Shown here: piece after piece, positions 19,045 through 64,000 of the stretch | Numbering within the stretch: position 1 is the stretch's first letter | How the letters are laid out: each line of letters starts with the position of its first letter | Assembly: GCA_022711405.1 (NCBI GenBank) | Contig: JAKLFC010000005.1 | Span: 134,278 to 198,277, forward strand | DNA from: Bacteroidota bacterium | GTDB taxonomy: Bacteria > Bacteroidota > Bacteroidia > Bacteroidales > JAGONC01 | DNA: 64,000 nt | Direction of reading: 5' to 3' | Made by a program: the position numbers and the translations under genes | Notes under the pieces: model-generated | What the model was told of the DNA's origin: nothing | Seen by the model: the letters and a program-made list of their open reading frames with translations, nothing else | Databases searched by the model: none

Positions 19045-19070
19045 TAAAACAGGTATGAGATTTTAACGAG

Positions 19071-19078
19071 CAAAGTTA
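19071..19078 (-). promoter_or_regulatory. -7 box (TAACTTTG) upstream of the pst operon
   Basis: TAnnTTTG on the minus strand, about 27 nt upstream of the ATG at 19044. Confidence 0.35.
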
Positions 19079-19088
19079 AAAAAACCAT

Positions 19089-19119
19089 TTTGTTATTCCT
19101 TCAAAGTTTAATACTTTTG
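19089..19119 (+). promoter_or_regulatory. Promoter (-33 TTTG, -7 TACTTTTG) for the 19137 gene
   Basis: TTTG at 19089-19092 and TACTTTTG at 19112-19119 are 19 nt apart. The ATG is at 19137. Confidence 0.5.
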
Positions 19120-19136
19120 ATACATAATCGTATTTT

Positions 19137-20324
19137 ATGATGAAAGGAAAACACTTCATCCTGACGGCTGCACTGTCCATCGTACTGATCTTACAATCGG
19201 AAGCACAGGTAAACGTTTCAATGGTTACCGACCCTGCTGCTTTTGAGGGTAAGGAAGGCAGCTTCTATTACCTGCCCGGGACCTATCTTGAGCTGGAGGT
19301 TTGCTTTGATCTTGTTGAAAAGATCAGGGGACCGTATGCGGATTATGCCTATAAGTTCCTCGGGCTGGATTCTGTGATCACGATCAATGAGCGATTTTAC
19401 GAATTGAAGGGCATCCGCTGTGACACCCGTACAGGTCCGGATCCCGGACAGCTGTATTTTGTGGAGTTCTTGCAGAAGCAGAGCAAAGATCCCCTGGAGC
19501 TTCACATGGTGTTTTCAGAGGAGGGATTTCTCACGGAGGCTGCCATGGGGATGGACATGACTTCCGTGCCCGTTACGGTTCAGCCGGAGAACGGGCCCGG
19601 GGTGATGCCCTGCAATAAGGTGGATCGAGAGGGCTTGTTCCGGTACTATGCCACCAGCAACCAGGTACTGAAGATAGACACCATCATTAAAATGGTCACC
19701 ATCGATACCTCCACTTTCAAAGACATCAGTTACAAGAGATCCATGATCTACAAGACCATGGAAGAAAGGGCAGGAGAAGCTGCTGAGCTCATCTCTTCCA
19801 TTCGGGAAGACCGGCTGAAGCTGCTCACCGGCTATCAGGAGGTTGGTTACAGCCAGGGAACCATGGAGTATATGGATGCCAGGCTACTGGGAATGGAAGA
19901 TGCCTACCTGTCGCTTTTTAAAGGTTATGTCAGCCGTGAAGGATACAAGGTGCGTCTGGTCTATTTCCCCTCTTCGGAAAAAGTTGGACAGGCTGATGAG
20001 ATCTGCCGTTTTTCTTCAACCGCAGGGATATCAGGATCGCATGATCCGCAGGGTGAGCCGGTACTGATCAGAATTGAACCTGTGGGAGCCTCCGGAGCTG
20101 TCCCATCGCAGGTATCAGGCTCTCCATCCGCCGCGGGCCAGGGCTTCGTATTCAGGACGCCGGGATTATGCCGTGTGAGCATCCAATGGAAGGAAAACGA
20201 AATGCTGAACAAGGAAATTCCCATTCATCAGCTGGGAATCCTGAGTCATTATCCCGCCACATCCAGATTTCATGTACAGATGCATCCGGCAGGCGGTTCT
20301 GTAAGGCAGGTAAGCGTACGATAG
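19137..20324 (+). CDS. Hypothetical secreted protein (signal peptide); family not recognised with confidence
   Basis: 395 aa. The N-terminal signal is KHFILTAALSIVLILQSEAQ. No catalytic motif was recognised. Confidence 0.5.
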   Translation: MMKGKHFILTAALSIVLILQSEAQVNVSMVTDPAAFEGKEGSFYYLPGTYLELEVCFDLVEKIRGPYADYAYKFLGLDSVITINERFYELKGIRCDTRTGPDPGQLYFVEFLQKQSKDPLELHMVFSEEGFLTEAAMGMDMTSVPVTVQPENGPGVMPCNKVDREGLFRYYATSNQVLKIDTIIKMVTIDTSTFKDISYKRSMIYKTMEERAGEAAELISSIREDRLKLLTGYQEVGYSQGTMEYMDARLLGMEDAYLSLFKGYVSREGYKVRLVYFPSSEKVGQADEICRFSSTAGISGSHDPQGEPVLIRIEPVGASGAVPSQVSGSPSAAGQGFVFRTPGLCRVSIQWKENEMLNKEIPIHQLGILSHYPATSRFHVQMHPAGGSVRQVSVR

Positions 20325-32500: not shown

Positions 32501-33069
32501 GTCTGTCCCTGGTCGGAAGAGTAGGAGCAGCTCTGCCCGCTTCCACTGTTAATGAATCCGTTATAGAACCATCCGTTGGTGCCAATGGCTACGGACGGGT
32601 CCCCTGAATTGGTTCCGCCTGTGCCATAGATCGTTCCTTCCCAGGATTCACCCGTGTCGAACGAGTAAAGTCCGTCGGCGCCATACAGCGTGCCTCCGGA
32701 TGAGGAGAGTGAATTATTGGAGTTCAGGATCGTTTCCACTTCTCCCGGATCAATGAACACAGAATTTTCGCTCTGCGTCGAGCCTGCATCCGTCACAGCT
32801 ACATCAGGCGAGTCCTCAATGGTCACGCTTCTGGACTTAATGGATGAACCCTTATACTGTGCCGGTTCAGAGATCACATTGGGATTCAGCCTGGTGAGCC
32901 CAAGACGGGCCATCCGCAGCCAGTACCCCTGGTTGTCAATGTAGGTCTGAACCTGGTAGCCCTCTGGCACGTTCTCGTCATCAGCGGATGAACCGGCATT
33001 TTGTGCGGAAAGGGTGAAAGGGATGATGAAAAACAAACAGAAGGAACCAATAAGGAATGATGTACGCAT
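29503..33069 (-). CDS. Large secreted T9SS cargo protein. It has a BNR/sialidase-like beta-propeller, FN3-like and jelly-roll-like domains, two copies of the 88-aa ANAG/WTTSGDGTF repeat, two PKD-like domains and a CTD.
   Basis: Six S-x-D-x-G-x-(T/S)-(W/F) motifs are present: SFDTGESW, SSDQGQTW, STDGGLSW, SLDGGATF, STDGGTTW, SMDGGQTW. The repeats span nt ~30335-30845, the VNDCGEG PKD-like units ~29790-30335, and the tail LFPNPSNGTF...GTYVLYL...KIMVR closes the protein. Confidence 0.8.
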   Translation of the reverse strand: MRTSFLIGSFCLFFIIPFTLSAQNAGSSADDENVPEGYQVQTYIDNQGYWLRMARLGLTRLNPNVISEPAQYKGSSIKSRSVTIEDSPDVAVTDAGSTQSENSVFIDPGEVETILNSNNSLSSSGGTLYGADGLYSFDTGESWEGTIYGTGGTNSGDPSVAIGTNGWFYNGFINSGSGQSCSYSSDQGQTWISVTIAPKPSGFSSLLDKNHLTIDNSTSSPYEGNLYSGWTSFGGSSDNEIEVARSTDGGLSWQQKIMISEAINAGSHNQGVNLQTGPAGEVYAVWAIYDNWPGDENALGFAASLDGGATFQPAQRIIQNIKGIRNTTAGKNHRVNSFPSMAVDISNSSYSGNIYVVWPNVGVPGTNQGPDIYVYMIRSTDGGTTWSTPIKVNQDPMSTGKKHYFPWIACDPVTGTLSVIFYDDRNVSSNQVETWVANSMDGGQTWDDFRVSDVAFSPTPIPGTASGYFGDYLGISARGGVVVPCWTDNRTGAAMTYVSPFTTPTTPNPASDPIPSNGANNVEPFAALHWKDFNNRSSSFRLYLGTDNPPTNIVNGATVQDTFYIPQADFNFQEQYFWRVKSINSFGSALSPIWSFSTEARPDEDFETGNFSKNEWSFSGNANWVINTEEKRNGTYSAASGQIGHSQSSSLMIDLEVKFSPFATSMSFWKKTSTQPGADILQFLMDGTVLGEWSGETDWSEESFIITTGGIHTFEWRYTKDGGSTGGEDRVWIDYVTFPLLEQLLANAGPNATICEGSPFTLSGTANNQTSVLWTTSGDGTFSNPAILKPDYTPGPGDIQNGDVTLTLTAFDETDQVSDDMQLSIQGTPFLEMEENFTICAGEIFSTEGTIAENYASLTWTTSGDGTFDDNTLLSAAYTPGPGDIANGSFGLTLVLTGLYPCGDVSGSMTVTVTPLPAPASTPAGPEMLCQNAGTTTYSVTSIAGASSYLWNLNPEEAGVLTADGTSLSVVWTPEFWGTAELSVLGVNDCGEGPVSEPLQVTLEPLPLQPAAPVGETYVCINFVDTSYYVTSVTEFASLYEWSINPPEAGVITGSDTTGIIAWNQQWTGIAHVTVRGVNDCGEGAWSESIQVILDICGGLEEKTTIDQITLFPNPSNGTFTLRMTTTREDIFDLKVLNALNSVVYEKKNVTWTGTQEMEIGLKDVSSGTYVLYLENSSTTLVRKIMVR

Positions 33070-43412: not shown

Positions 43413-44852
43413 ATGCTTAACAATATCATAAAACGTTACGCTCAATATGTATTGCTTCTGACTATCTTGAGCTTCAGCAACAGGGTCCAGTCCCAGCAGT
43501 TCTACTTCGGCGCCGATCTGTCTTATGTGAATGAAATGGAAGACTGCGGGGTGGTGTACACCGAAAATTCATCCGCCAAGGATCCATTCCGGCTCTTTGC
43601 CGATCATAACTGCAACCTCGTACGGCTGAGACTATGGCACACGCCTTCTTGGTATGACGGTCTGAATGCGGGCATGCGCTATTCTGACCTGCAGGATGTG
43701 AAGAAGGGCATACAGCGGGCCAGGGAGAAGAATATGAAGGTGCTGCTGGATTATCACCTTTCAGATGACTGGGCGGATGCCAGCCATCAGCTTGTCCCTG
43801 ATGCATGGCTCAGCGTTGTGGATAATCTGCCGCTCCTGAAGGATTCCCTTTACAACTATATTTTCGGTACACTTCTGCAACTCGATGAGGAAGGACTTCT
43901 CCCTGAAATGGTCCAGATCGGCAACGAGACCAACAAAGGCATCCTGCTTTCGCCGCAGGATGACCAGTCGGGCTGGGTACTGGACTGGAACCGCAACAGC
44001 CAGCTGTTCAACACGGCCATACAGGCAGTCAGGGATGTGGAGTCGCAGACAGGAAAACAGGTCCTGGTTGCCGTGCATTTTGCGGATCCTGCCGATGTGG
44101 CCTGGTACGTTTCACAGTTCGTCGCCAACGGCGTGACCGGTTTTGATGTCATTGGCATTTCCTACTACTGGCAGTATCACCAGCCTTATACCATTGACCT
44201 CACAGGCAATGTCATCGCAGCGCTGATCTCGGCCTACCCGCCCTACAAGGTGATGATCTTCGAAACCGGAGCCATCTGGACCACTCAGAGCCACGATAAT
44301 GCGAACAATGTCCTGAACACGGTTGATCCTTCCTATTCACCGGCCAGTACCGAAAACCAGCAGAAGTGGATGATAGATCTCACGCAGAAGGTAATCAATA
44401 GTGGCGGCAGCGGGGTGATCTACTGGGAACCGGCATGGATGTCGTCCGACTGTTATACACAGTGGGGGAAGGGATCGCATTACGAGAATGCCACTTTTTT
44501 TGATTTTGACAACAACCTGATCACTGCCGGCGGCATTGGTTTCATGCAGCATGATTACGAGAATCTTTCCGCGGAAACTGTGGCCATTCCGGATTACGGC
44601 ATACGGGTCATCCCCGACAGCAGCCGGCGGAGAATTATTTTGCAGTTTGGCGACGGCGCCCCGCAGGGAATCTACGGGCTGATGCTCGTGGATCAGGGTG
44701 GGAGAGAGGTGTTTTCCGGCGAAATTAAAAAGCAGGACGTGGCATCCTTACAAAGTTCCATTGACATGCCTCTGCTGCCGGCCGGGATATATGTGTTGGC
44801 GGTGTGGCATGGGAATACCGTTATTGCGAGAGAAAAGATCTTCCTTCATTAG
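43413..44852 (+). CDS. GH53 arabinogalactan endo-beta-1,4-galactanase with a probable T9SS-type C-terminal domain
   Basis: GADLSYVNEME, VRLRLW, QIGNETN (acid/base Glu) and MIFETG (nucleophile Glu) are present. The C-terminal ~80 aa beta-sandwich-like tail reads GIYVLAVWHG...KIFLH. Confidence 0.8.
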   Translation: MLNNIIKRYAQYVLLLTILSFSNRVQSQQFYFGADLSYVNEMEDCGVVYTENSSAKDPFRLFADHNCNLVRLRLWHTPSWYDGLNAGMRYSDLQDVKKGIQRAREKNMKVLLDYHLSDDWADASHQLVPDAWLSVVDNLPLLKDSLYNYIFGTLLQLDEEGLLPEMVQIGNETNKGILLSPQDDQSGWVLDWNRNSQLFNTAIQAVRDVESQTGKQVLVAVHFADPADVAWYVSQFVANGVTGFDVIGISYYWQYHQPYTIDLTGNVIAALISAYPPYKVMIFETGAIWTTQSHDNANNVLNTVDPSYSPASTENQQKWMIDLTQKVINSGGSGVIYWEPAWMSSDCYTQWGKGSHYENATFFDFDNNLITAGGIGFMQHDYENLSAETVAIPDYGIRVIPDSSRRRIILQFGDGAPQGIYGLMLVDQGGREVFSGEIKKQDVASLQSSIDMPLLPAGIYVLAVWHGNTVIAREKIFLH

Positions 44853-49637: not shown

Positions 49638-52415
49638 TTATTTCACGCACCGCACGCTGAATCCGTTTGTCTTATCGCTTGCAAAACGGCTGACACGTGC
49701 ATCATCGTAGTTCAGGTACCTGCTCCAGGCGGTTTGAGCATCATTCTGCGTGGATGACCAGAAGGTACCCAGTTCACCCATATCAAAGAAGCCCCCGTCA
49801 TAGATGTTCCGGTATCCGCCGGGAAGTCCCGTAAACCCGCTGCTGTTCGTGGCCCCCGTGTTGGGTTCTTCCCAGTGGTCCAGCCCGGCCTCCTTCATAT
49901 GGCCCCCCGCATCCAGGCCACACTTGCCCACTTTGTCCCATTCCGGATGACCTGCCGGATACTGGCTGTCGATGGTGCCTGTGAGCGTTTTCAGCTCACT
50001 GTCGGTGGGGATGTGCCAGTTGGGCGGGCAGATGCCACGGGTACCCTGCTGGGTGACATACTGCATGGCTTCAGGCCATTCGTACAGGGCTCCATAGGTC
50101 TCACACTGCACAGGATCGTTGTTGTAACAGTATTTCTCGATGAGATCGTTGTCCGTCTGCTGGTACCCCTCTTCATCGCTGTTGATCCTGGCTCCGATAT
50201 TGAGGTTCTCCGACATCCAGCACTGAGTTCCGACCTGCACGGTGGAATAGACCTGGCCGTCGCGGAAATCGGTGAGAGGATCCCCGCAGTTGAATACGAA
50301 ACTGATCATCACTGCATCCGTTGAGCTGCTGCAATCTGTGGTGATGGTCCATGTAAGGTGATAGGTGCTGTCGACAAGGCCCTGGAAGGTGCTTGCCGGA
50401 TTCGTGGTGTCCTGGATCGTTCCCCCGGTGCCGTTCACGATATGCCACACTCCGGTACCGTTGATGGGGGTGTTGGCAGCCAGCGTGGTCATGTTTCCCG
50501 GAACGTTAATCTGATCCGGACCGGCGCTGGCAGGAGTGGGCTGTGGTACACAGCCGCGTATGCATCGGATCGAATATCCCGAAGGAGGGTTGGCATAGCT
50601 GTAGCGTAAGATGCTTTTATGCTCAAAGTCGAGCAAACGCAGCACGATATAATTCGTGTCCACCCGCGAGGAAGTCCAGAAAAAGGCCGAACTGTCCTTT
50701 TCGATGAAAGAAGCCGTGGATTTATCCCTTCGTCCGCCGGGCAGGCCGGTAAAACCGTATATGTTGGTTGCGCCTGTATTGGGTGCAGCCCACATCACCG
50801 TGGTGGTATCCTTCAGGTTCCCCCCGGCATCCAGTCCCCGCCACCAGTCGTTATCCCAGACCGGATCGCCGGCAGCATACTGGCTGTCGGTAAATCCTTC
50901 GAGCACTTTCCATTCGAAGTCGGACGGGATGTGCCATCCCAGTGGGCAAATTCCCTGGCTGCTGGGAAGGGTGGCATACTGCATGGCTTCGCCCCACTGG
51001 TAAAGACCTCCGAAAAGGGTACAATTGGCGGTATCATTGTCATAACAAAACTTTTCGATGGTTCCATTGTTCGATTGTTCAATGGTTCCTGCGATCATGG
51101 CGCCCACGTTCAGGTTTTCCTTGAGCCAGCATTGATTGCCGATCTGGACCGTGTTATAGGTACGGCCTTCGAAAACGACTTCCTCGATGTCCTCACAGGG
51201 CAAGCCGAAGAGTTCCGCAAAGCTGATTTGGACAGTGTCGGCTGAGTTGCCGCATACGGTGCTGATGATCCAGGCCAGGGCATACTCGTTGCCCTGGATG
51301 CCCTGAAAGCCGCTAAGCGGATTCAGTGTGTCGGCGATGAATCCTCCGGTACCGGTAATGATACGCCAGACACCTGTGCCGCAATCGGGCGTATTTCCTG
51401 TCAGGAACGTATAGGTGTTCTGTACATCTATCTGGTCGGAGCCTGCGCTGGCCTGGGAAGGCTGCGGCACGCAGTTCTTCAGGCACCTTACCGAGAAGCC
51501 GTTTCCCTTCGGGGAGCTGCTTCGCGTCGCATCGTCGGTGGTATAGTACATATAACGGTCCCAGCCACTGGCAGCGTCGGCAGGGGAGGAGGACCAGAAA
51601 ATGCCATATTGCCCCAGGCCCGTAAACGAACCATCGGTGCTGATGCGGTATCCTCCTGCAAGGGCAGTGAATCCGCTGGAGTTCGTGGCTCCGGTGTTAG
51701 GAGCCTGCCAGTGGGTGAGGCCAGCTTCTTTCATCCTGCCTCCGGCCTCTCCCGCGCCACCGAGGAAGGTTGTCAGTACCGTGTAATCCATGTCGGTGGG
51801 CAGGTGCCATCCGGTGGGGCAGATGCCCTGCGCGCCGGCGGTTCCCTGGTATTTCATGGCTTCAGGCCACTGGTAAAGGCCACCGTAGCTGTTGCAATTA
51901 GCCAGAATATTACCATAGCAGTACTTCTCGATGGTTCCATTGTTCGATTGTTCAATGGTTCCTGCAATCATGTTACCCACGTTCAGGTTCTCCCTGAACC
52001 AGCACTGATCCCCGATCAGCACCGTGCTGTATGTTTTTCCGCCGTAGGAAACTGCAGGCGTGCCCGGGCATTGCATTCCCGGTGTTTGCAGGATGAGACT
52101 GGTGACAGAAATGACATCAAGGATGTTGATGATCCCATCTGCGTTCATATCGGTTGCTTCCAGGTCGAACGGATCGGGGCTGCCACCCATGATATAGCTT
52201 ACCATGGCAATGACATCCAGCACATTGACCTGGCCGTCTTCGTTGGCATCTCCAAAAATGGTGTATTCACATTCAGGAGGGGAGGGTGAGGGTTCAAAGA
52301 GGCTGGCCGCCTCTGAGCCCGGCACATCCAGGCACGACAGTGATCCATATATCCGGGTGGTGTATAGGGATAACACTACTGTCATAAATGCAATGAAAAG
52401 TAGCGAATTTTTCAT
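49638..52415 (-). CDS. Secreted protein with an N-terminal type-I-like dockerin and three Fibrobacter succinogenes major paralogous (FISUMP, TIGR02145-like) domains separated by Ig-like linkers
   Basis: It has a signal peptide. The dockerin duplicated segments are GDANEDGQVNVLDVIAMVSYIMGG and DMNADGIINILDVISVTSLIL (nt 52089-52256). Three units carry Y.TV.IG.QCW..ENLN...CY.N....C..YG.LY.W.EA....CP.GWH.P(T/S)D.E...L. Confidence 0.75.
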   Translation of the reverse strand: MKNSLLFIAFMTVVLSLYTTRIYGSLSCLDVPGSEAASLFEPSPSPPECEYTIFGDANEDGQVNVLDVIAMVSYIMGGSPDPFDLEATDMNADGIINILDVISVTSLILQTPGMQCPGTPAVSYGGKTYSTVLIGDQCWFRENLNVGNMIAGTIEQSNNGTIEKYCYGNILANCNSYGGLYQWPEAMKYQGTAGAQGICPTGWHLPTDMDYTVLTTFLGGAGEAGGRMKEAGLTHWQAPNTGATNSSGFTALAGGYRISTDGSFTGLGQYGIFWSSSPADAASGWDRYMYYTTDDATRSSSPKGNGFSVRCLKNCVPQPSQASAGSDQIDVQNTYTFLTGNTPDCGTGVWRIITGTGGFIADTLNPLSGFQGIQGNEYALAWIISTVCGNSADTVQISFAELFGLPCEDIEEVVFEGRTYNTVQIGNQCWLKENLNVGAMIAGTIEQSNNGTIEKFCYDNDTANCTLFGGLYQWGEAMQYATLPSSQGICPLGWHIPSDFEWKVLEGFTDSQYAAGDPVWDNDWWRGLDAGGNLKDTTTVMWAAPNTGATNIYGFTGLPGGRRDKSTASFIEKDSSAFFWTSSRVDTNYIVLRLLDFEHKSILRYSYANPPSGYSIRCIRGCVPQPTPASAGPDQINVPGNMTTLAANTPINGTGVWHIVNGTGGTIQDTTNPASTFQGLVDSTYHLTWTITTDCSSSTDAVMISFVFNCGDPLTDFRDGQVYSTVQVGTQCWMSENLNIGARINSDEEGYQQTDNDLIEKYCYNNDPVQCETYGALYEWPEAMQYVTQQGTRGICPPNWHIPTDSELKTLTGTIDSQYPAGHPEWDKVGKCGLDAGGHMKEAGLDHWEEPNTGATNSSGFTGLPGGYRNIYDGGFFDMGELGTFWSSTQNDAQTAWSRYLNYDDARVSRFASDKTNGFSVRCVK

Positions 52416-52631: not shown

Positions 52632-52659
52632 TTTGCTAAATGATAATTACATATATTTG
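52632..52659 (+). promoter_or_regulatory. Promoter (-33 TTTG, -7 TATATTTG) for the kinase/activator pair
   Basis: TTTG at 52632-52635 and TATATTTG at 52652-52659 are 16 nt apart. The ATG is at 52678. Confidence 0.4.
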
Positions 52660-52677
52660 CTGTCATGTGTAGTGGCA

Positions 52678-54444
52678 ATGGAGAAGCACCCAACGGTCAG
52701 CAAATTACAGAAACGGGTAACCCATCTTGAAGAAACCCTGGAGCGGAGAACACAGGAACTGGTAGATGAAATGATCTACTCGGTGAGGTTTATTGAAGAT
52801 ATGGTTGTAAATTCACCCTACCTGGTGGCCATCACGGATGCGGATGGCAGAATCCAATTCGTGAATGAAGTGTTCATCCAAACCATGGGGTATTCGCTGG
52901 AAGAATTGCGGGGAAAGGTCAGGATCTTTCACAAGGGATACCCCGAAGATACGAAGGGCCTTCAGGAGATCAGCGAAGCACTGAGCAGGAACGAAGCCTG
53001 GAAGGGCGCTACGGAGGTGAAGACACGTGACGGAAGGATACTCACCCTCCGGGGGATCATTTTCACTGTGATGTCAGAAACGGGAATGCCCCTCAGGATC
53101 GCCATGTTCTATGATATCACCGGTGAACGGCAACGTGAAAACCTGTTCCGGATCCTTCATGAGATCGATTCCCTCAGCAATGTTTCTGTCACCCTGGATG
53201 CATCGCTCGAACTGGCGGGCAACTACCTGCATCAGATCGAATGGATCGATCTGTTCTCGATCCATTTGATGAACGAGGCGTCAGGTTATCTGGAAATGGT
53301 CTATTCCAGGGGGACATCAAAACAGTTCGAAAACACTGTCATGCAATACCCTGCATCCAGCAGGACCGTGGCTGATGTGATCGGACATAGGGCCACCTAT
53401 ATCGATCACACCCTGTTTGATCAGTTGGTGGATGAGAACTTAAAGGATGGTTTCAGGAAAGAAGGATTGCAATATATTGCCAGCATTCCGTTGATATACC
53501 AGGATAAAGTGATCGGAGCCCTTAATCTCGGATCCAAAAAAGATCACCCTCCTGATGAGCTCACACGCACCGCCCTGGAGGCGATCGCCTCCAAGCTGGC
53601 CACCCTGATCGCCCTGGTCAGGACCCGTCAACAGCTGGAGGAGACTACCATGGAGCTGAAAAAACACATCTATGAGCTGAACACCAAACAGCAGATGCTG
53701 ATCCAGAAATCCCGCCTGGAATCGCTCGGGGAATTGTCGGCCGGCTTCAGCCATGAGATCAACCAGCCGCTGGCCGTCATCTCGCTGGTGATGGAAAATA
53801 TACTCCACAGGGTCAGCGATGGCAAAGCAGGCAAAGTGTATCTGACCCGGAAGCTGAACACCATCAGCCAGAACCTTACTAAAATACAGCAGCTTATTGA
53901 TCATATCCGTATCTTCTCCCGCGACCAGGCCGTGTTGTCGCTCGATCGTCTCGACGTCAACGAACGGATCCACAGTGCCCTTTCGATGATGGGAGCCCAG
54001 CTGCGGAAGCACCAGATCCGCGTGATCACAGACCTGTGGAACGGTGAAGGCTATACGGTCGGCAATCCCTCCCGTTTCGAACAGGTGATCCTCAACCTGC
54101 TCACCAATGCCCGTGATGCCCTGGAAGAGAAAGGAAAGCTTCATTTTGGCAACATTCAGCCCAAAGAGATCCGGATCACCACTCAACCCAACGCGAAAAA
54201 GATCGAACTAAAAGTGTGGGATAATGGAATTGGCATTCAGCATGAAAACATTGACAGGCTCTTTGACCCGTTCTATACGACAAAATCCGGGGGGACAGGC
54301 CTGGGATTGCCCATTATTTATGGCATTGTCACTGAGATGCACGGTGAGATCACTGCCCGGTCAATCCCTGGCGAGTTCACGGAAATGACCGTCTTATTGC
54401 CATTTCATCATTCCAGGATCGAAGAAGGGAGCGCTGTGCCATGA
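52678..54444 (+). CDS. PAS/GAF sensor histidine kinase (HisKA + HATPase_c), cytoplasmic
   Basis: The PAS region is ITDADGRIQFVNEVFIQTMGYSLEEL, followed by a GAF-like middle region. The H-box is FSHEINQPL. The N, G1 and G2 boxes are NLLTNARDA, DNGIGI and GTGLGL. No TM segment. ATG 52678 is preferred over the in-frame TTG at 52633 because of the promoter position. Confidence 0.85.
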   Translation: MEKHPTVSKLQKRVTHLEETLERRTQELVDEMIYSVRFIEDMVVNSPYLVAITDADGRIQFVNEVFIQTMGYSLEELRGKVRIFHKGYPEDTKGLQEISEALSRNEAWKGATEVKTRDGRILTLRGIIFTVMSETGMPLRIAMFYDITGERQRENLFRILHEIDSLSNVSVTLDASLELAGNYLHQIEWIDLFSIHLMNEASGYLEMVYSRGTSKQFENTVMQYPASSRTVADVIGHRATYIDHTLFDQLVDENLKDGFRKEGLQYIASIPLIYQDKVIGALNLGSKKDHPPDELTRTALEAIASKLATLIALVRTRQQLEETTMELKKHIYELNTKQQMLIQKSRLESLGELSAGFSHEINQPLAVISLVMENILHRVSDGKAGKVYLTRKLNTISQNLTKIQQLIDHIRIFSRDQAVLSLDRLDVNERIHSALSMMGAQLRKHQIRVITDLWNGEGYTVGNPSRFEQVILNLLTNARDALEEKGKLHFGNIQPKEIRITTQPNAKKIELKVWDNGIGIQHENIDRLFDPFYTTKSGGTGLGLPIIYGIVTEMHGEITARSIPGEFTEMTVLLPFHHSRIEEGSAVP

Positions 54445-55826
54445 AATCAGTGAAGATCCCTGTGCTGATCCTTGACGATGAGCCTGAAATAGGCCGTGAG
54501 ATAAGGGAGTTCCTCACCGGCAGCAGCTACCGGGTCAACGTGGTACTCACACCATCGGAGGCATTTCGATTCCTGGAGAAGAATCCTGTGGAGATCGCGC
54601 TTCTTGACATCTGCCTGCCGGAGATGAGCGGCCTGGAGGTGCTCAGAAAGATCCGCCAGAAATATCCTTCCACCGAAGTGATCATGATGAGCGGCCATGG
54701 CGATATGGATTCGGTGATCATGTCGCTGCGGCTGGGTGCCGTCGACTTTTTCAAGAAACCGTTCCACATGCCGGAGATGCTGGAAACACTGGATAAGACC
54801 AAAAAACTGATCCACACCGTACGGCAGTCCAATGGCGATCATTTCCGCCATGTCCTGGATGAGGATTTCGGAAAGGAACCTGCCTCGCCGCTGATCGCTG
54901 TCAGCCAGGCCATGCAGGCCGTGGTGGACCAGATGCGGCTTGTCGCCCATTCCTCCGACACCACTGTCCTGATCACCGGCGAAAGCGGCACCGGCAAGGA
55001 GCTCATCGCCCGCGGCATCCATTACCTGAGCAGCCGAAGCGACAAGCCCTTTCATGCCGTCAACTGCTCCTCTGTGCCCGACGAGCTATTCGAAAGCGAA
55101 TTTTTCGGCTACCGGAAGGGTGCGTTCACGGGAGCCCTCACCGACAAGGCCGGGTGGTTCGAGGTCGCACACCAGGGATCTCTTTTCCTGGACGAGATTG
55201 CCGATATGAAACCCGGCCTGCAGGCCAAGCTGCTGCGCATCATGGATGACCGGAAGATCAGCCGGCTGGGTTCCACCACGCTGCAAGCCGTTGATATCCG
55301 TGTGATCGCCGCCACCAACCAGGACATCGAGCGGCTGGCGCGGGAGGGACAGTTCCGCTCCGACCTGTACCACCGGCTGAACGCTTTCTGCATCCACGTC
55401 CCTCCCCTTCGCGAGCGCCGCGAGGGTATCCCGCACCTGCTCCGGCATTTTGTCGAATGGTACTCCAGGAAGCTGAACCACGATGTTCCCCGGCTGGATC
55501 CTTCGATACAGGACGCCATGCTCCGGTACGATTTCCCCGGCAATGTCAGGGAGCTGAAACACATGGTGGAGCGGGCGCTGATCCTTTGCCAGGGCGAGAC
55601 GCTCACCTTCGATCATTTCGACCAGTTGAAGATCAAGCTGCAGGCCACCGGTGCTTTTCCGGCCCATGGCAGCGCCTCCCGGCGCCTGTGCACGACCGAG
55701 AAAGAATCCATCGAGGCCGCGCTGGCCGCCTCCGGCGGCAACAAGTCGAAGGCCGCACGGATGCTGGGGATATCGCGCCAGGCATTGGATAGAAAGATAG
55801 TTAAGCTGAAGATTCAGCTTCCTTAA
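54441..55826 (+). CDS. Sigma-54-dependent response regulator (REC + AAA+ with GAFTGA + Fis-type HTH; NtrC family)
   Basis: REC is LILDDEPEI...LLDICLPEMSG. Walker A is GESGTGKE. The sigma-54 contact loop is GAFTGA. The HTH is KSKAARMLGISRQALDRKI. 4-nt overlap with the kinase gene. Confidence 0.9.
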   Translation: MKSVKIPVLILDDEPEIGREIREFLTGSSYRVNVVLTPSEAFRFLEKNPVEIALLDICLPEMSGLEVLRKIRQKYPSTEVIMMSGHGDMDSVIMSLRLGAVDFFKKPFHMPEMLETLDKTKKLIHTVRQSNGDHFRHVLDEDFGKEPASPLIAVSQAMQAVVDQMRLVAHSSDTTVLITGESGTGKELIARGIHYLSSRSDKPFHAVNCSSVPDELFESEFFGYRKGAFTGALTDKAGWFEVAHQGSLFLDEIADMKPGLQAKLLRIMDDRKISRLGSTTLQAVDIRVIAATNQDIERLAREGQFRSDLYHRLNAFCIHVPPLRERREGIPHLLRHFVEWYSRKLNHDVPRLDPSIQDAMLRYDFPGNVRELKHMVERALILCQGETLTFDHFDQLKIKLQATGAFPAHGSASRRLCTTEKESIEAALAASGGNKSKAARMLGISRQALDRKIVKLKIQLP

Positions 55827-55875
55827 ATTCCAAATCACAAGCACCAAAATCCAAGCAAATTCCAAATTCCAGGAT

Positions 55876-57371
55876 ACGAGTGTTCAAAACATTAAAAACA
55901 AATATTTAAAGCATCCATTATCAATAAATGTTCTTTGACATTTTGAGAATTAAGGTTTAGCGTTGATAGCTATCGAAAAAACGTGTTTGGGTCTCCACCA
56001 CTCTGTTCAATCATGACATCATCGATGATATCGCCTAATTCGATGGCAAATCGTCTTTTAGCTGTTTTATAGCCAAACTCGTTAATTTTTTTGTAAATCA
56101 GGATTAACATCGCAAGAATCAGGGTCATGTAAAGGAGTATTTTAATTCCATTCTCATTGACGCTGATAAGGTGAGAAAAATTTAACTCCTGTTTGATAAA
56201 CCGGAAAAAGACTTCAATATCCCATCGGTGTTTGTATATCAGGATGATCTCCTGGCAGGTCAAATCAAACCGATTGGTCAGAAACCAGTATTGTATTCCT
56301 TTTGCGTTTTGTGTCTGGATTAATCGAAACGGATGTTCCAGCACATGATTTCCGGATCGATACAGGTATACGCACTGATCTTTCAAAACAGTAAGATTCC
56401 TGACAACAAGGCCTGGTGGAAAGGCAATATCATTCAAAACAACATGACGGGCATCTACCTGCAATCGGGTAACAAAGGAACAGTCATGTGTGTCCAGTTC
56501 GTAGAAGACATCACGGCTTGAAACACCCCTGTCAAAGACAAAAACATTGTCTTTGCTTTTATCCATGACCTTGAGGATGACTTTGGGGATGGTCAGGCTC
56601 TCGCAGATATACTTTTGTTGAGTAAAGATCTCTACGCTGCTGGGAAACATGTCTGTTAAACTGATGGTGTACTTGACCTGCTTTTTACCATCTTTTTTCA
56701 CCCCGACACGGATTCCCTGCTCAAGTTTGGCAGCGGTTTGACAAACCATGGTTGAATCAACCCGTGTAATCCTATAGTGTAGAGATAAAGTCGGTTCATC
56801 GTATAAAAGGCTGCATTGCTCATGGATGGCCTCATAAGCCTTCTCGAAATAACTGACATTCATGGTTGCCAACCGGGCAGAAAGAGAATTGTACCTGGCA
56901 TTCGGCGGGGTGCCAGGTAATTTGAACATAGCCTTAAATTTCCGGGAGTTGTAGAAGTCCTCCAGCGACCTTAGTCCCACTCGCTCCCCGGTAAGAAGTC
57001 CATATAACAATAAATTAAACACATTACGGCCATAGAGCTTTTTGACCTGATAATCCACCTTGGTTTCCTTAGCTAAATCAAGCAATAGATCATCCGGGAT
57101 GAGTTTTAACAGATCGCTGACTCCGATGCCATCTTCCTTGAACTTCATTATGGTAAAGAATAGCATCAAAGGTAATGACGAATAGTGTGGTAATCGACTC
57201 AAAATCAACAGATTTTATCAACACAGCATGAAACAAATTGTTGATAACCAGTGATTTAGATAAATATACACAGATAGATAGTTAATATCATCCTATATAT
57301 TGTTAACAACGCCTATTTTCTCAAAATGTCAAAGAACGTTAAGTATGATCTAGAATGTTTTGAACACTCGT
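55876..57371 (-). mobile_element. Complete IS4-family-like insertion sequence, 1496 bp
   Basis: The 18-bp terminal inverted repeats are perfect: ACGAGTGTTCAAAACATT (55876-55893) and AATGTTTTGAACACTCGT (57354-57371). An 11-bp direct repeat AATTCCAGGAT flanks it (55865-55875 and 57372-57382). There is a single transposase ORF. A second internal 20-bp inverted repeat GTTCTTTGACATTTTGAGAA lies at 55930-55949 / 57318-57337. Confidence 0.85.
55970..57208 (-). CDS. IS4-family DDE transposase
   Basis: 412-aa maximal ORF. The likely start is MKFKEDG at 57148. The N-terminal region DLLKLIPDDLLLDLAKETKVDYQVKKL and the C-terminal YKHRWDIEVFFRFIKQ (Y-x2-R-x3-E-x6-K-type signature) are typical of IS4 transposases. 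Confidence 0.8.
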   Translation of the reverse strand: MILSRLPHYSSLPLMLFFTIMKFKEDGIGVSDLLKLIPDDLLLDLAKETKVDYQVKKLYGRNVFNLLLYGLLTGERVGLRSLEDFYNSRKFKAMFKLPGTPPNARYNSLSARLATMNVSYFEKAYEAIHEQCSLLYDEPTLSLHYRITRVDSTMVCQTAAKLEQGIRVGVKKDGKKQVKYTISLTDMFPSSVEIFTQQKYICESLTIPKVILKVMDKSKDNVFVFDRGVSSRDVFYELDTHDCSFVTRLQVDARHVVLNDIAFPPGLVVRNLTVLKDQCVYLYRSGNHVLEHPFRLIQTQNAKGIQYWFLTNRFDLTCQEIILIYKHRWDIEVFFRFIKQELNFSHLISVNENGIKILLYMTLILAMLILIYKKINEFGYKTAKRRFAIELGDIIDDVMIEQSGGDPNTFFR

Positions 57372-57645
57372 AATTCCAGGATCCAAAAGCCAAATAAATT
57401 CCAGGATCCAAATTCCAAACGAAAGTCGCACTCCCATTACTTATCGTGGGAGTGGGATCATTTCATATTTTTTCCCTCCTCTGGTCAATCTCCTTCTCCT
57501 TTCACCTCAACTTCTATCTGGGTAATCAGTAATGGTTATTCCTCCTGCCCGTTTGCCCATTTCCGGGCATAAAAAATCGCCCGCTTCTTTCTCCTCTCTC
57601 CTCTCTCCTCTTTCCTTTCTCCTCTCATTCAACGCTTTACAAGCT

Positions 57646-57695: not shown

Positions 57696-58031
57696 ATGAA
57701 AAGATCCCTTCTTTTCATAGGATACGATGCTCAGGTGGAGCAGGAGATCCGAGAGTCGTTATGCGATAAAGTATCCGAGTGTTTCTTTGTCCAGACACCT
57801 GTGGAGGCTATCCGCACGGTGGATGATCACGCGGTGGACTGCGTGGTGCTAAATTTTTCGGCTTTCAGCGACGCGTCGCTGATACGGTACTTCAGCCAGT
57901 ATCATCCGGGCATCCGGTTGGTGTTATCGGCCAGCAGGGAGTTCGACGAGGTGATCTCCATCTTCAGCGAGAGCACCTACTCGCGGTTGCCTCGTCCCTT
58001 CCGGCTGGAACAGCTGCGGGAGATGATTTAA
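57696..58031 (+). CDS. Stand-alone receiver-like protein with degenerate phosphorylation site (pseudo-receiver)
   Basis: 111 aa with a REC-like beta-alpha pattern. The beta-3 position reads CVVLNFS (Asn where the acceptor Asp is expected). The beta-1 end has a single acidic residue (GYD). The beta-5 region reads RPF instead of KPF. Confidence 0.55.
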   Translation: MKRSLLFIGYDAQVEQEIRESLCDKVSECFFVQTPVEAIRTVDDHAVDCVVLNFSAFSDASLIRYFSQYHPGIRLVLSASREFDEVISIFSESTYSRLPRPFRLEQLREMI

Positions 58032-58174: not shown

Positions 58175-61100
58175 ATGAAAAAGAATTTTACTCTTGTTAT
58201 GCTGACAGGTATGTTGATGTTCAGCATATTCAGTATTGCTCAAACTACGTACACATTTCCTGGCGGGACTTTAAGCGGATCCTTCGGAGTTTGGGGGGGT
58301 ACAGGTTATTTTTACCCACCCTCCTTCAATGTGAATGCACCCGGGGGGATTGATATTACATATTTTGATATTGATGTATCCCAATTTACGGAGGCAAATG
58401 TTTGGTCTACAAAAGGTGTCGCAGAACCTGGAATAAGTGGCTCAAATTTCATGAATAGTATTGATCCAGAGAATAATAGCGTATGGTGCAATATTTTAAA
58501 CATGGAAATTGCTTCTGGTGTCGATTGGGACGGTCACTCTTTATCAACTTTGGGTCCTGATGGAATCGTTGGGACATCTGACGATTCAAGACATCAGGGT
58601 ACTCAGGATTGGTACAGGAAAGCCACTGACGGTAAGATTGACGGTCCGGCTGCTGGTCCGTATTATAATAACGAAAGTTATGTAACGCCTAATCCACGCC
58701 ACCCTTCTGCAACGGCATACAGTGCTTCTCAATTGAACAGTTACGATTTTCGTTTACGGGTTTTGCCAACAGGAGGAAACACCTATACGTATGAGATGTG
58801 GTTCAGGATGCATAATTCTGCTGCTGAGGTTGAAGGAGCCTATTGGGCCTACAATACCGCACTTAATAACACAGCAAAACATGGGACCGATGCCTGGAGA
58901 AAATTTGCTCAAGGGCCGACGGATGTATTTCCTATAACAGATATTGATCTATCCTCAGTCTATGTTTTTATGGGTCTGGGGAATTTCGCAGATCCTGCCT
59001 CTCACTCACTAGCCTGGGGTCAGATACAGGTCACGGGCACTTATGCCGCACCTGCGGAGGTTTGGGTAGATGATGGCTATACTTCCAGCGGACCGAATGA
59101 CGGGCACTGGTGGGGATATGACGCATTTGCAACCATACAGGACGGTGTCAACGCGGTGGCCACGGGAGGTACGGTGAATGTGGCAGCGGGGACGTATACT
59201 GAGCAAATAAATGTAATAAAAGCAGTCATTATTAAAGGGAACAATGCCGGAGTAGCCGGTTGCGGAACAACAAGAAATACAGAATCAATCGTTAACGGAG
59301 GATTTTACCTTACCGCTGCAGCCACCATCGACGGATTTCATATTCAGAATGGATACCATTTCGGATCTTTTTATGACGGTCTAGCTGTAAATACCGACGA
59401 TGTAACCCTTCAAAACAACATCATCGAATTATGTGATGATGCTGCACAAGGCAATGGTATAGAGATGGTCAGCGGATCTGACAATCTGGATATCGTCGCG
59501 AATGATATCAGGAACAATTGGAGAGGGATTTATCTCAATCCTGCAACTGGCATTACTATTACTGCTAACTGCATTCACGACAATAACGGTTGCGGGGTTG
59601 GCATCGGTTCCGACGGACAAAACAACCTGACCGTTACCCACAATTTCTTTTACAATCAGACTGTGGAAGGATGGGGTGCCAGTGCAGTTGGAGCCAATGT
59701 GGTTGCGCATAACAACTCTTTCATCCAAAGCGGCACAGCCAAGATGGTTGCCCACTACGGTGGTTCTGCCATAGACGCCTCCTGCAACTGGTGGGGGTCA
59801 GCAAGTCCTGATTTTACAAGCCTGATCACTGGTTTAGTAAATGCTGACCCATGGTTGGTGGATGGGACGGACAACAGTGCTGAAATCGGATTTCAACCTT
59901 TGTATGACGCCTGTTCCGGTACAAATAATCCTGTGACCTATGCCGCCAAGGAAGTCAAGCCTACCGGCAGCATCAGCCTGCCCGTCATGGTGGATAATTT
60001 CAACAATGTGGCTGCTATCTCTTTGTACATGAACTTTGATCCCGCCATACTTACCTTTACAGGATTTACCCCGCATGGTTCCCTGCCGTCACTTACCGCC
60101 ACAAATCCTTCTTCAGGCCTGATCATTATCGGTTGGAACAATGGCGCCGCTGGGGTGACCATACCGGGCAGCAAAGTGGAAATTGTCATGCTCCATTTTA
60201 CTTTCGCCGGAGGCACTTCCCTGCTTGCGTGGGATGACACCGACGATTGGCCTTGCGAGTATGCCTATCCGGTCAGTTCCTGGGAAACAGCAGTGTATCC
60301 CGATGATCCTGCCTCCACTTATTACATTCCGGGCTGGGTGACCAACCTGGGGGTGACTTTCACCCGGACTTACACTCCGGCACCCGGGACCATCACGGCG
60401 GTACCCCAGGGAGGTACAAGTCCGTTTACTTATTCCTGGACAGGACCGGGTGGATTCACTGCCGGAAATACGGCAACCATAACCCCCACCAACGAGTATG
60501 GCGACTACGTGGTAACGGTGACCGACGCCCTCGGAGCAACAACAACGGGCACTTATTACTACGGCCCGGTGCATAATATCGATACATATATTGATTATGC
60601 GTTGCTGAATGATGCCATTGATGCTGCTGCCACTCTTGACGGGCACACCATCACCATGGATCCGGGCACTTATGTCGAAATCGGGCAAATTGTCGTGGAC
60701 AAGAATCTGACCATCATCGGTGACAGTAAGACGACAACCATCATCAAACCAAATGCAGATTATACATCATCTACCGACGGATGGATCAAGGTGGTTGGAG
60801 GAAAAACGCTGGATCTTTCCAATGTCCAGCTTGACGGTACAGGCTATAATATTTTTAATGCCATGTATTTCCTTGGAGATGGTAATGTCGATAACTGTAC
60901 CATCACAGACATACAATATCAACCTTCAGGGCCGGCTTACCGCGGGACAGGAATTCTGGTGGAAAATGGCTGCGATGTGGATATTACCGGTTGTGATTTT
61001 ACGTATATCGGACGTGACGGTATTCGCCACAGGGGTACAGGAGCCGTACAGAATAACACTTACACCGGCAAAGGTGCAGGCGATTGGATGGATTATTTTA

Positions 61101-64000
61101 TCCTGGCCGAATACGGCTGCAACATTTTGATCGAAGGCAACACGGTGACTAACTGTGTTGGTGTAGCCACGGTAGATGGATCAGGTTCTGCAGCCATAGC
61201 TGTCTGGGATGAGGAAAATACCACTGCAGTCATCACAAACAATATTCTGACCGGTAATTCAACAGGGATTGGAATAGCAGGAATAAACAGCGCTACACTT
61301 CCCTGGCCATGGCCTGTTGTTACCATTGGCAACGGAAACGTAATTACGGGAGGTGAATTCGGGATCACCATGGACGTCTATTCCGGCTATACCTGCAATC
61401 CCCCTGTCACGTTCGGCACAACAACCATAACAGGACAAACGGTTGCTGCAATCAGCATCGGCGATGCTGTCAGCCCCGGAACCAATTATGATATCAGCAG
61501 CATTACTCTGAGTACGACGGATAACTGCAGCAGGGAAGACCTGGTAATCCATGCCATTGATGCGGGGAACAGGGCCCTCCTGGTTTGGAATCCCAACAAT
61601 GTGTATGTGACTGTTAACAGCTTTGTGGCGCCAGAAACCGTACCAAGCATCCAGCGTGGTATTGATGCCGTGGGAGCCACAGGATGGACAGTGAATGTCT
61701 GCCCGGGTACCTATGGCATTACCACGCAGATACTGGTCAATAAAAGCGTTGACATTGTGGGGGATGTAACCAGCAGGCCTGTCGTGCAGGCTCTGAATGA
61801 TCTGAACGGAGGCACAGCCGGATCCTATATTTTCAGGGTAGACAATGCGGTAAATGCCAACGTGGACATAAGCAATCTGGTTCTGGATGGAAACGGATAT
61901 AATGTGTATGGCGGAATGAAGTATAATTCGAACCATACCGGTGTAGTTAATAATTGCAGGTTCCAGAATATTGTTGCTCCCGGCTATTCAGGATTTGGGA
62001 TCGTCGATTATGGTACCATGACCATCACAAATAACGTGTTTACGAACATCGGCAGGGTCGGTATGTGGATCGGAGGCCCGGGAAATAACGTATCGTACAA
62101 TACCTACACCGGGAAAGGCGCCATTGATTGCCTTGATTACGGTATTGAAGTCGGCTTCGGGGGAGATGCTGACATAACCTTCAATACCATAACGAATTGC
62201 AAAGGGACAGCTTCAGATTTTTCAACTTCAGCTGGGATCATGGCTACCACTTATTTCGGACCCGGAACTGCAGCCATCATTGAAAACAACGTGATAACCG
62301 GAAATACGGAGGGTATTGTGGTTGGTTATGATGAAACTGACGGCAGTACAGTGACCGTTCACAACAATGACATTTCGGGTAATACAAATTATGGGATCAT
62401 CAGCACTGCACCCACCGTTAATGCCACGTGCAACTGGTGGGGAACTGCGGACGGCGACCTTGTGCTGGATGAGACTTCAGGAAATGTCACCTATTGGCCA
62501 TGGCTGGTGAGTGGAACAAATGAAGTTCTGGCCGGGCCCGGTTTTTACCAGGCCAGCCCGATCTGCACCGGCACCCCGGTGGTCGCCTCTGCCGTACCGA
62601 CTCCTGTGTATTGCGGCCCGACACCCGGATCCATCCTGGTCATATGGACAGGAGGAACACCCAATTACACCGTAAGCTGGACCGGAACATCCAGCGGCTC
62701 GGCACCGGGCCTTGCTTCATCACCCTATACGATTGCAGGGCTGACAGCGGGTTCCTTCACGGTTACCGTAACCGACGCCAACGGATCTTCATCCACCGTG
62801 GATCCGGTTGTGGTTCAGTACCTGCCGGTGCACAATGTGACGCAGAATACCTATTATGCTACGATACAGGCGGCCATTGACGCTTTATCTACGGTCGATG
62901 GTGATGTGATCCAGGTATGTGCAGGAACATATAATGAGGCTCTGAACATAAACAAGGCTCTGACAGTACAAGGAGCAGGGTTATCCACAACTACAATTGA
63001 TGCGACAGGTAAGCTTGCCTCAGCTGTGACAATAACAGCCACAGGCAGTGTTAAACTTGATGGATTTAAAATCTTCAATGCAACTACTTCTGATGGAAAC
63101 CATTTTGAAATTACCCTCAGTGGTGGTAGCCTAGGTAGTACAATAGAAATCTCGAATAATAATATTATCGGTGCAGGAGATGCAGATAATGACGACTATG
63201 GATTTTATTCTGGATTATGTTCTTCCAATCTGATCTTCAGAAATAATACGATCAGCAACTGTGCCTCTCATTCCCTTTTCCTTGAAAGACTTCTAGGAAC
63301 CTCTGATATCAAGGACAACACGATCAATTCACGCTCTGATGCAGGTCCGGCAATTGGATTAATGACATATAAGACCTCAGGAGATCCGGTTAGCAATTAC
63401 GAGATAACAGCCAAACAATGGATCCATAATAACACTATTGACGCGAATGGCTCTAGTGGTATTTTATTAATGGCACCTTACGGATCGAGCTATGATCAGT
63501 ATCCTGGAGGTAAATACACCAATATTGAAATATCAGGTAATATAATATCTAATGTCGGTGGTAATGGTAAGGGGATACAACTTGAATCAGACGGTGACGG
63601 TGGCAGTATTGAGAATGCAATAATAACTCAAAACAGTATCAGCGCACAAATTCCTGGATCAGGCACATCACGCGGAATCAGAATGCTTGGGAATGTCATT
63701 AATACGAACATTACTGAAAATACTTTGAATGGTTTTTACAGGGGGGTTTATCAGAGCTATTCCTATGGTCAGCCTGGAATTCCTGGTCCAAGTAATAATC
63801 TGGTCAATAACAACTCAATAACCGGCTGTACCTATGCAGTCGAGAATCAATACACTGACATATTGAATGCCACCTGCAACTGGTACGGCACGGCCGATGG
63901 TGACCTGATTGCCCCGATGATTGCCGGGCCGGTTGATTACGATTCCTGGCTGTCCGATGGTACCGATAACGACGGTGCAACCCCGGGTTTCCAGTCGGTC
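58175..64000 (+). CDS. Giant secreted surface protein, 3' end cut by the window edge (>1942 aa). It has an unknown N-terminal domain, at least four right-handed parallel beta-helix modules, one cohesin-like module and two SprB/HYR-like repeats.
   Basis: It is absent from the ORF track because no stop occurs. I translated the frame from ATG 58175 by hand and it stays open to nt 64000 (exactly 1942 codons). The signal peptide is MKKNFTLVMLTGMLMFSIFSIAQ. The module starts are of the type Y.TIQ.AI.A...GD.I.V..GTY.E (nt ~59040, 60550, 61600, 62830). PbH1-like N-x-I-x-G/N repeats are present. The caps are CNWWG, CNWWG and CNWYG (59782, 62428, 63871). Confidence 0.85.
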   Translation, partial: MKKNFTLVMLTGMLMFSIFSIAQTTYTFPGGTLSGSFGVWGGTGYFYPPSFNVNAPGGIDITYFDIDVSQFTEANVWSTKGVAEPGISGSNFMNSIDPENNSVWCNILNMEIASGVDWDGHSLSTLGPDGIVGTSDDSRHQGTQDWYRKATDGKIDGPAAGPYYNNESYVTPNPRHPSATAYSASQLNSYDFRLRVLPTGGNTYTYEMWFRMHNSAAEVEGAYWAYNTALNNTAKHGTDAWRKFAQGPTDVFPITDIDLSSVYVFMGLGNFADPASHSLAWGQIQVTGTYAAPAEVWVDDGYTSSGPNDGHWWGYDAFATIQDGVNAVATGGTVNVAAGTYTEQINVIKAVIIKGNNAGVAGCGTTRNTESIVNGGFYLTAAATIDGFHIQNGYHFGSFYDGLAVNTDDVTLQNNIIELCDDAAQGNGIEMVSGSDNLDIVANDIRNNWRGIYLNPATGITITANCIHDNNGCGVGIGSDGQNNLTVTHNFFYNQTVEGWGASAVGANVVAHNNSFIQSGTAKMVAHYGGSAIDASCNWWGSASPDFTSLITGLVNADPWLVDGTDNSAEIGFQPLYDACSGTNNPVTYAAKEVKPTGSISLPVMVDNFNNVAAISLYMNFDPAILTFTGFTPHGSLPSLTATNPSSGLIIIGWNNGAAGVTIPGSKVEIVMLHFTFAGGTSLLAWDDTDDWPCEYAYPVSSWETAVYPDDPASTYYIPGWVTNLGVTFTRTYTPAPGTITAVPQGGTSPFTYSWTGPGGFTAGNTATITPTNEYGDYVVTVTDALGATTTGTYYYGPVHNIDTYIDYALLNDAIDAAATLDGHTITMDPGTYVEIGQIVVDKNLTIIGDSKTTTIIKPNADYTSSTDGWIKVVGGKTLDLSNVQLDGTGYNIFNAMYFLGDGNVDNCTITDIQYQPSGPAYRGTGILVENGCDVDITGCDFTYIGRDGIRHRGTGAVQNNTYTGKGAGDWMDYFILAEYGCNILIEGNTVTNCVGVATVDGSGSAAIAVWDEENTTAVITNNILTGNSTGIGIAGINSATLPWPWPVVTIGNGNVITGGEFGITMDVYSGYTCNPPVTFGTTTITGQTVAAISIGDAVSPGTNYDISSITLSTTDNCSREDLVIHAIDAGNRALLVWNPNNVYVTVNSFVAPETVPSIQRGIDAVGATGWTVNVCPGTYGITTQILVNKSVDIVGDVTSRPVVQALNDLNGGTAGSYIFRVDNAVNANVDISNLVLDGNGYNVYGGMKYNSNHTGVVNNCRFQNIVAPGYSGFGIVDYGTMTITNNVFTNIGRVGMWIGGPGNNVSYNTYTGKGAIDCLDYGIEVGFGGDADITFNTITNCKGTASDFSTSAGIMATTYFGPGTAAIIENNVITGNTEGIVVGYDETDGSTVTVHNNDISGNTNYGIISTAPTVNATCNWWGTADGDLVLDETSGNVTYWPWLVSGTNEVLAGPGFYQASPICTGTPVVASAVPTPVYCGPTPGSILVIWTGGTPNYTVSWTGTSSGSAPGLASSPYTIAGLTAGSFTVTVTDANGSSSTVDPVVVQYLPVHNVTQNTYYATIQAAIDALSTVDGDVIQVCAGTYNEALNINKALTVQGAGLSTTTIDATGKLASAVTITATGSVKLDGFKIFNATTSDGNHFEITLSGGSLGSTIEISNNNIIGAGDADNDDYGFYSGLCSSNLIFRNNTISNCASHSLFLERLLGTSDIKDNTINSRSDAGPAIGLMTYKTSGDPVSNYEITAKQWIHNNTIDANGSSGILLMAPYGSSYDQYPGGKYTNIEISGNIISNVGGNGKGIQLESDGDGGSIENAIITQNSISAQIPGSGTSRGIRMLGNVINTNITENTLNGFYRGVYQSYSYGQPGIPGPSNNLVNNNSITGCTYAVENQYTDILNATCNWYGTADGDLIAPMIAGPVDYDSWLSDGTDNDGATPGFQSV

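Follow-up and report, generated by a model that had tools for sequence, protein, structure and literature searches.

The window analyzed here, 64,000 nucleotides from a Bacteroidota bacterium (contig JAKLFC010000005.1, positions 134,278 to 198,277, forward strand), holds a gene for a giant beta-helix protein with an embedded cohesin module and, about 7.5 kb from that module, a gene for a FISUMP protein with a dockerin. The two genes are 5.8 kb apart, on opposite strands and divergent. The features of the two proteins are as follows (positions within the window).

58175..64000, + strand: giant open reading frame (ORF), 1,942 residues in the window, uninterrupted and continuing past the window end; full protein 3,329 residues
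59201..59659, + strand: beta-helix unit 1, NosD-like, residues 343-495, N-terminal of the cohesin; CNWWG cap at 59783
59918..60373, + strand: cohesin module, residues 582-733 of the giant protein, with bounds from the family hidden Markov model (HMM; domain E = 5e-47)
60386..60547, + strand: SprB-like immunoglobulin-like (Ig) repeat, residues 738-791, directly C-terminal of the cohesin; weak Pfam SprB match (E = 0.0084)
49638..52415, − strand: FISUMP-dockerin gene, 925 residues; Sec signal, N-terminal dockerin, three FISUMP domains and PKD-like spacers
52101..52253, − strand: dockerin module, residues 55-105; Dockerin_1 E = 7.4e-10

On the evidence of sequence profiles and of a predicted structure, this part of the giant protein is a true cohesin module, type-I-like and non-cellulosomal. 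A cohesin-like peptide had been placed at 59930-60340 in an earlier note on this DNA; it is indeed found in frame in the ORF starting at 58175 (VTYAAK begins at residue 587), and the module extends slightly further on both sides. With the isolated segment of 177 residues, PF00963 (Cohesin) is the sole Pfam match (E = 2.1e-5, covering profile positions 8-100 of 139), and the gathering threshold is passed by a small margin (25.2 bits for a cut-off of 24.1). Pfam Cohesin is not reported in a scan of the entire giant protein and is absent from its precomputed annotations; the module is therefore missed by routine annotation. A single-sequence phmmer search with the segment, filter-free and against 1.84 billion cluster representatives (clusters at 50% identity), gives 890 representative clusters at E <= 1e-3. 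Pfam Cohesin is present in 67 of the 69 relatives sampled (best E = 7e-70); P0002 (4.8e-68 across six copies) and P0003 (1e-33) are strong Pfam cohesins.

The family profile, built from an alignment (A1) of 66 module sequences, has as its best match among solved structures the A. fulgidus cohesin 2xdh (E = 3.3e-8), followed by 2vn5 and 1g1k (both about 4e-7); 6kgc and 4ums are also matched (1e-7 to 1e-5). Over the 35 entries of solved structures, cohesins lead and non-cohesins appear only weakly (E >= 0.4). The VPV strand and the YDPxxL strand, on which the first suggestion of a cohesin was based, align with their counterparts in 2xdh and 2vn5. The segment alone finds no match by phmmer in the PDB, so that the family profile is needed for this comparison. 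Word-indexed homologue searches returned no match for the segment, two for the profile and one for the dockerin.

Predicted fold and subfamily signature

With alignment A1, the AF2 prediction gives the flattened beta-sandwich (jelly-roll) of cohesins with 12 strands, with a predicted local distance difference test score (pLDDT) of 93 and a predicted template modeling score (pTM) of 0.86 (a single-sequence run, at pLDDT 31, was of no use). In a Foldseek search of this model against the PDB, cohesins occupy all 50 top positions (best E = 5.9e-8, template modeling (TM) scores 0.53-0.74), mostly type I cohesins in chains taken from dockerin complexes. A Foldseek check had been proposed in the earlier note, with an unrelated Ig-like fold as the outcome that would speak against a cohesin. 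The top structural matches and the best profile matches are all cohesins; the segment therefore does not model as an unrelated Ig-like fold. Pfam, the relatives, the family profile and the AF2/Foldseek comparison thus agree on the cohesin identity first proposed for this part of the giant ORF.

Over its last third, the module no longer follows the Pfam model but forms a C-terminal extension specific to the subfamily. The subfamily signature reads W-x-D...C-E-Y...D-x-P-x(3)-Y-Y-x-(N/D/P)-G-x-V, with W686, C694, D710, P712, Y717 and G720 nearly invariant. The subfamily is large, so far uncharacterised, and belongs to organisms with a type IX secretion system (T9SS).

The giant protein and its relatives

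The giant gene is present in separately deposited assemblies, where it is called with 3,329 residues (ENA) or, from a later start, with 3,220 residues (NCBI); the JGI copy ends at a contig edge. The order of domains is a signal peptide, an N-terminal domain of about 300 residues, beta-helix unit 1, the cohesin, the SprB-like Ig repeat and then further units. There are five right-handed beta-helix units of the NosD/pectate-lyase type (Pfam Beta_helix 1.4e-35, NosD 4.6e-19), each closed by a CNW[WY]G...W-L cap (residues 537, 1419, 1901, 2340 and 2788), and after most of them comes an SprB-like Ig repeat. In the full-length protein, the SprB repeats are clear (Pfam, 3.4e-16). Beyond the window come SprB repeats and a CarboxypepD_reg-like domain, then a second, weak cohesin-like module and finally the T9SS C-terminal domain. 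Big_2 and PKD domains, of the adhesin type, are also among the surroundings of the cohesin module.

The N-terminus, MKKNFTLVMLTGMLMFSIFSIAQ (MKKNFTLVML...), reads by eye as a signal peptide, and Por_Secre_tail is found at the C-terminus of the full-length protein (L005 copy; 1.5e-8, 35.3 bits for a cut-off of 27). With these two signals, the giant protein is, from its sequence, T9SS cargo. They also make plausible the earlier suggestion of a surface protein, and the giant protein is probably a fibre retained at the cell surface. A dockerin-like stretch near the giant C-terminus, GDVDNDTWLVTTDAGLIQSYY, was seen by eye and dropped, with support neither from Pfam nor from the dockerin HMM of the subfamily.

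The second cohesin-like module lies at residues ~3104-3185 of the giant protein (L005 ~18983-19228), with E = 2.8e-8 for the family HMM and 0.041 for Pfam Cohesin. Similar weak matches occur before or near the T9SS tail in relatives at L010, L011 and L007. The next gene downstream, past the window (L005 19756-23217), encodes at least 1,154 residues and has at its N-terminus two tandem cohesin-subfamily modules (family HMM E = 2e-27 and 1.5e-50), followed by Big_2 repeats; in the whole-protein scan, Pfam Cohesin was silent on these tandem modules.

No Pfam family matches the N-terminal domain of the giant protein (58238-59140, residues 22-322). This domain shares 72% identity with the beginning of an ORF of 1,420 codons (L006 10001-10909) in a Bacteroidetes metagenome-assembled genome (MAG) from Lac Pavin. 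That ORF, in which beta-helices are also present, is the single relative of the giant protein among GTDB species genomes. No cohesin module is present in the retrieved locus of this relative, which suggests module shuffling.

In the relatives of the cohesin module itself, tandem arrays of 4-13 modules are frequent (phmmer set), and T9SS C-terminal domains are found in 18 of the 69 sampled. About one in ten of the subfamily representatives (16 of 150) carries a dockerin at the extreme C-terminus, among them P0021, P0048, P0076, P0112, P0134, P0141, P0102 and P0078. Pfam supports this dockerin in P0076 (1e-8), and in P0021 it falls just below the Pfam cut-off (2.9e-4). The dockerins of these proteins form a subtype, GDVNxDG-[IV]-[DTN]-xxD, for which an HMM was built from five of the 16. 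At five loci of relatives from the cohesin subfamily, cohesin modules and T9SS tails are densely packed, and at two of these loci (L010 and L011) the module is again embedded in beta-helix/SprB giants.

Dockerin binding and the FISUMP protein

The dockerin that the earlier note had read in the 49638-52415 product stands: Dockerin_1 (PF00404) scores 39.3 bits for a threshold of 22.9, and both calcium-binding loops, DANEDGQVNVLD and DMNADGIINILD, are complete and lead into a helix, the two halves being near-symmetrical. The two loops of 12 residues with D/N at positions 1, 3, 5 and 12 follow the type I pattern, and type I dockerins are also the nearest among solved sequences (6kg9, 3.4e-8; CelS 1daq, 6e-6). 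The FISUMP dockerin is distinct from the C-terminal subtype of the cohesin subfamily (E = 0.22 with the subtype HMM). It is the sole dockerin in the window. The FISUMP domains are equally clear (Pfam Fib_succ_major 4.3e-104; NCBIfam TIGR02145 9.6e-110). Neither Pfam nor NCBIfam finds a T9SS C-terminal domain in this protein. Export as a lipoprotein was considered and rejected: Cys28, in the context GSLSC and 11 residues past the hydrophobic core, misfits a lipobox. With a Sec-type signal and neither a lipobox nor a T9SS domain, the FISUMP protein is expected in the periplasm, and no route over the outer membrane is recognisable for it.

What the cohesin does, where it is displayed and what it holds we infer as follows. 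The giant protein would pass first through the Sec pathway and next through the T9SS, and would probably be held on the cell surface. The cohesin, at the junction of beta-helix unit 1 and the SprB-like Ig repeat, would offer the 8-3-6-5 face of its beta-sandwich to the paired, calcium-loaded helices of a dockerin, as cohesins do elsewhere, so that one dockerin-bearing protein would be tethered to a long surface fibre. By analogy, it is fairly likely that this cohesin module binds a dockerin. Cohesins from A. fulgidus and C. perfringens, which are non-cellulosomal, do bind dockerins when tested. The strongest argument comes from the subfamily, where tandem cohesins with a C-terminal dockerin mirror the layout of adaptor scaffoldins. 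The canonical dockerin encoded in this region of the genome also speaks for dockerin binding.

Two observations weigh against dockerin binding. The C-terminal extension makes up the last third of the module, beyond the Pfam match, and may affect the putative binding face. In addition, no separate dockerin genes are found nearby at the five loci of cohesin relatives; these loci, rich in cohesins and poor in dockerin genes, have the opposite of the cellulosome ratio.

The next question is whether the dockerin bound would be that of the neighboring FISUMP protein. The following genes and elements lie between the dockerin gene and the giant gene.

52633-54444, + strand: PAS/GAF histidine kinase
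54441-55826, + strand: sigma-54-dependent response regulator
55875..57372, − strand: intact insertion sequence (IS) element; DDE transposase at 55970-57208 (Pfam DDE_Tnp_1, 7.1e-13)
57696-58031: ORF of 111 residues immediately upstream of the giant gene, called in all assemblies; no Pfam family

The IS, with terminal inverted repeats of 19-23 nt (55875-55949 and 57318-57372), sits between the regulator and the giant gene. On the other side of the dockerin gene, 5 kb away, there is a gene of the GH53 endo-galactanase type (43413-44852), without a dockerin. The window holds no dockerin-bearing glycoside hydrolase, and the earlier remark that this system is not associated with glycoside hydrolases is thus borne out at the level of modules. 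Further Por_Secre_tail proteins in the window are encoded at 19-2463 (no assigned function), 25735-27723 (M1 peptidase) and 29503-33069 (BNR/PKD). These three T9SS-tail proteins, together with a Bacteroidetes MAG as the closest GTDB relative, point to a Bacteroidota-like T9SS host.

The earlier note saw in the cohesin and the FISUMP dockerin a potential cognate pair, by which the giant protein would display the lectin-like FISUMP protein on the surface. As a specific pair, this is unlikely. Both modules are genuine and type-I-like, both partners of a single complex (6kgc/6kge) are among their best solved matches, and the only dockerin of the window is the one on the FISUMP protein. The arrangement of the genes is shared by three separately deposited assemblies, all of them near-identical. 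Were the IS absent, kinase, regulator and giant gene would lie closer together as a block on one strand, with a divergent intergenic region common to this block and the dockerin gene. However, the two genes are on opposite strands with a gap of 5.8 kb and three unrelated genes between them, and no sigma-54 promoter motif that would connect them was found upstream of either. Linkage of cohesin and dockerin genes is absent among relatives from either side: the five cohesin-relative loci lack dockerin genes, and cohesin-subfamily modules are missing from the seven loci of dockerin relatives. The one relative that the giant protein has in GTDB is without the cohesin, and the expected periplasmic location of the FISUMP protein also speaks against its display. 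At least three further cohesin-subfamily modules occur within 12 kb (the two in the downstream gene and the weak one before the C-terminal domain of the giant protein), so that any pairing would not be one-to-one. In the systems studied, moreover, specificity is independent of gene adjacency. The FISUMP-dockerin protein is then one candidate ligand among others in the genome, not established as the partner, and with a low chance of being it.

Another alternative is that the cohesin fold serves as a spacer, a beta-sandwich with a structural or adhesive role, or has a ligand other than a dockerin (a glycan, the surface of a host or of prey, or a second copy of the fibre). The adhesin-type domains that flank the module (beta-helix, SprB, Big_2 and PKD) would suit such a role, as would the many cohesin-subfamily modules at five loci of relatives without separate dockerin genes and the divergence of the C-terminal third from canonical cohesins. 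We consider it improbable, since about a tenth of the subfamily proteins end in a dockerin, the arrays of 4-13 modules resemble scaffoldins, and a genuine dockerin gene is close by. A chance resemblance, with cohesin-like motifs on an unrelated Ig-like fold, could appeal to the mere 1.1 bits by which the Pfam score exceeds its cut-off and to the loss of the match in whole-protein scans, but it is refuted by the transitive homology to strong Pfam cohesins (67 of 69 relatives), the profile matches to solved cohesins and the exclusively cohesin matches of the fold in the Foldseek top 50, and its probability is negligible.

Wider assemblies and known systems

Cohesin–dockerin pairing is known almost wholly from Gram-positive cellulosomes. 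If the module of the giant protein simply binds some dockerin, a known principle is extended to a new cell envelope and nothing is overturned. The locus offers a concrete, clonable pair of modules, and the subfamily is defined by a recognisable C-terminal motif and overlooked by routine whole-protein Pfam annotation; both can be used to ask if Bacteroidota assemble multi-protein surface structures via cohesins and dockerins. The components of such assemblies are seen in the sequences: beta-helix/SprB fibres with cohesins, T9SS-anchored proteins with tandem cohesins, and adaptor-like proteins ending in a dockerin. A far-reaching view would be that this subfamily (at least 890 clusters) builds hierarchical, non-cellulolytic surface assemblies in T9SS bacteria, recruiting lectin-like proteins such as the FISUMP proteins; in its boldest form, dockerin proteins with only a Sec signal would ride to the surface on cohesin-bearing T9SS cargo. 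We offer this as a speculation with a small chance of being correct.

The clostridial type I cohesins (CipA Coh2 of C. thermocellum, 1ohz/2ccl; CaCohA2 of C. acetobutylicum, 6kgc; CipC of C. cellulolyticum, 2vn5/1g1k) resemble the predicted fold (TM 0.65-0.73), share the VPV and YDPxxL motifs and show profile homology (E ~1e-7); here too, the genome region has a gene for a canonical type-I-like dockerin. Identity to the module is only ~12-16%, and the module adds the C-terminal extension, a conserved Cys and the YYxNG motif. The clostridial scaffoldins bear carbohydrate-binding modules (CBMs), whereas here a single module is set in a beta-helix/SprB giant. Their hosts are Gram-positive, with anchoring by S-layer homology (SLH) domains or sortase, whereas the present organism is a diderm with a T9SS; no dockerin-bearing glycoside hydrolases are seen in the window. 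Membership in a cellulosome was rejected: the giant protein has one clear cohesin and no CBM match, and the only dockerin of the window is on the FISUMP protein.

Non-cellulosomal cohesins and dockerins are reportedly catalogued across the three domains of life (Peer and colleagues, in 2009, FEMS Microbiol Lett 291:1, to which PMC6487960 and PMC10066038 refer). The cohesin of A. fulgidus (2xdh) and the cohesin-like modules of C. perfringens (2jh2/2ozn) are likewise in proteins outside cellulose degradation, and 2xdh, as noted above, heads the sequence-profile matches. The proteins in these examples are small or linked to enzymes, whereas the host here is a giant T9SS beta-helix protein and the subfamily occurs in tandem arrays. 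With the giant T9SS adhesins of the SprB type in Bacteroidota, the protein has in common the SprB repeats, Por_Secre_tail and a repetitive architecture of several kilobases; to our knowledge, neither cohesin nor beta-helix units have been described in SprB itself.

Dockerins are reported from rumen Bacteroidetes (PMC6487960). In Ca. Stygibacter (Cloacimonadota), a T9SS-anchored scaffoldin of 3,755 residues with tandem cohesins has been inferred in silico (PMC8542988). That protein is also large and secreted, with cohesins and a T9SS domain, and dockerin proteins are encoded in the genome; both cases are in silico only. In Ca. Stygibacter, the cohesins are in tandem with CBM2/CBM3, and the dockerins are on hydrolases and peptidases, whereas here one clear and one weak cohesin stand among beta-helices, and it is a FISUMP protein that carries the sole dockerin seen. 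The present case joins this kind of non-cellulosomal cohesins and T9SS scaffoldins, with, as its particular features, the embedding in a beta-helix giant, the C-terminal signature and the blind spot in annotation.

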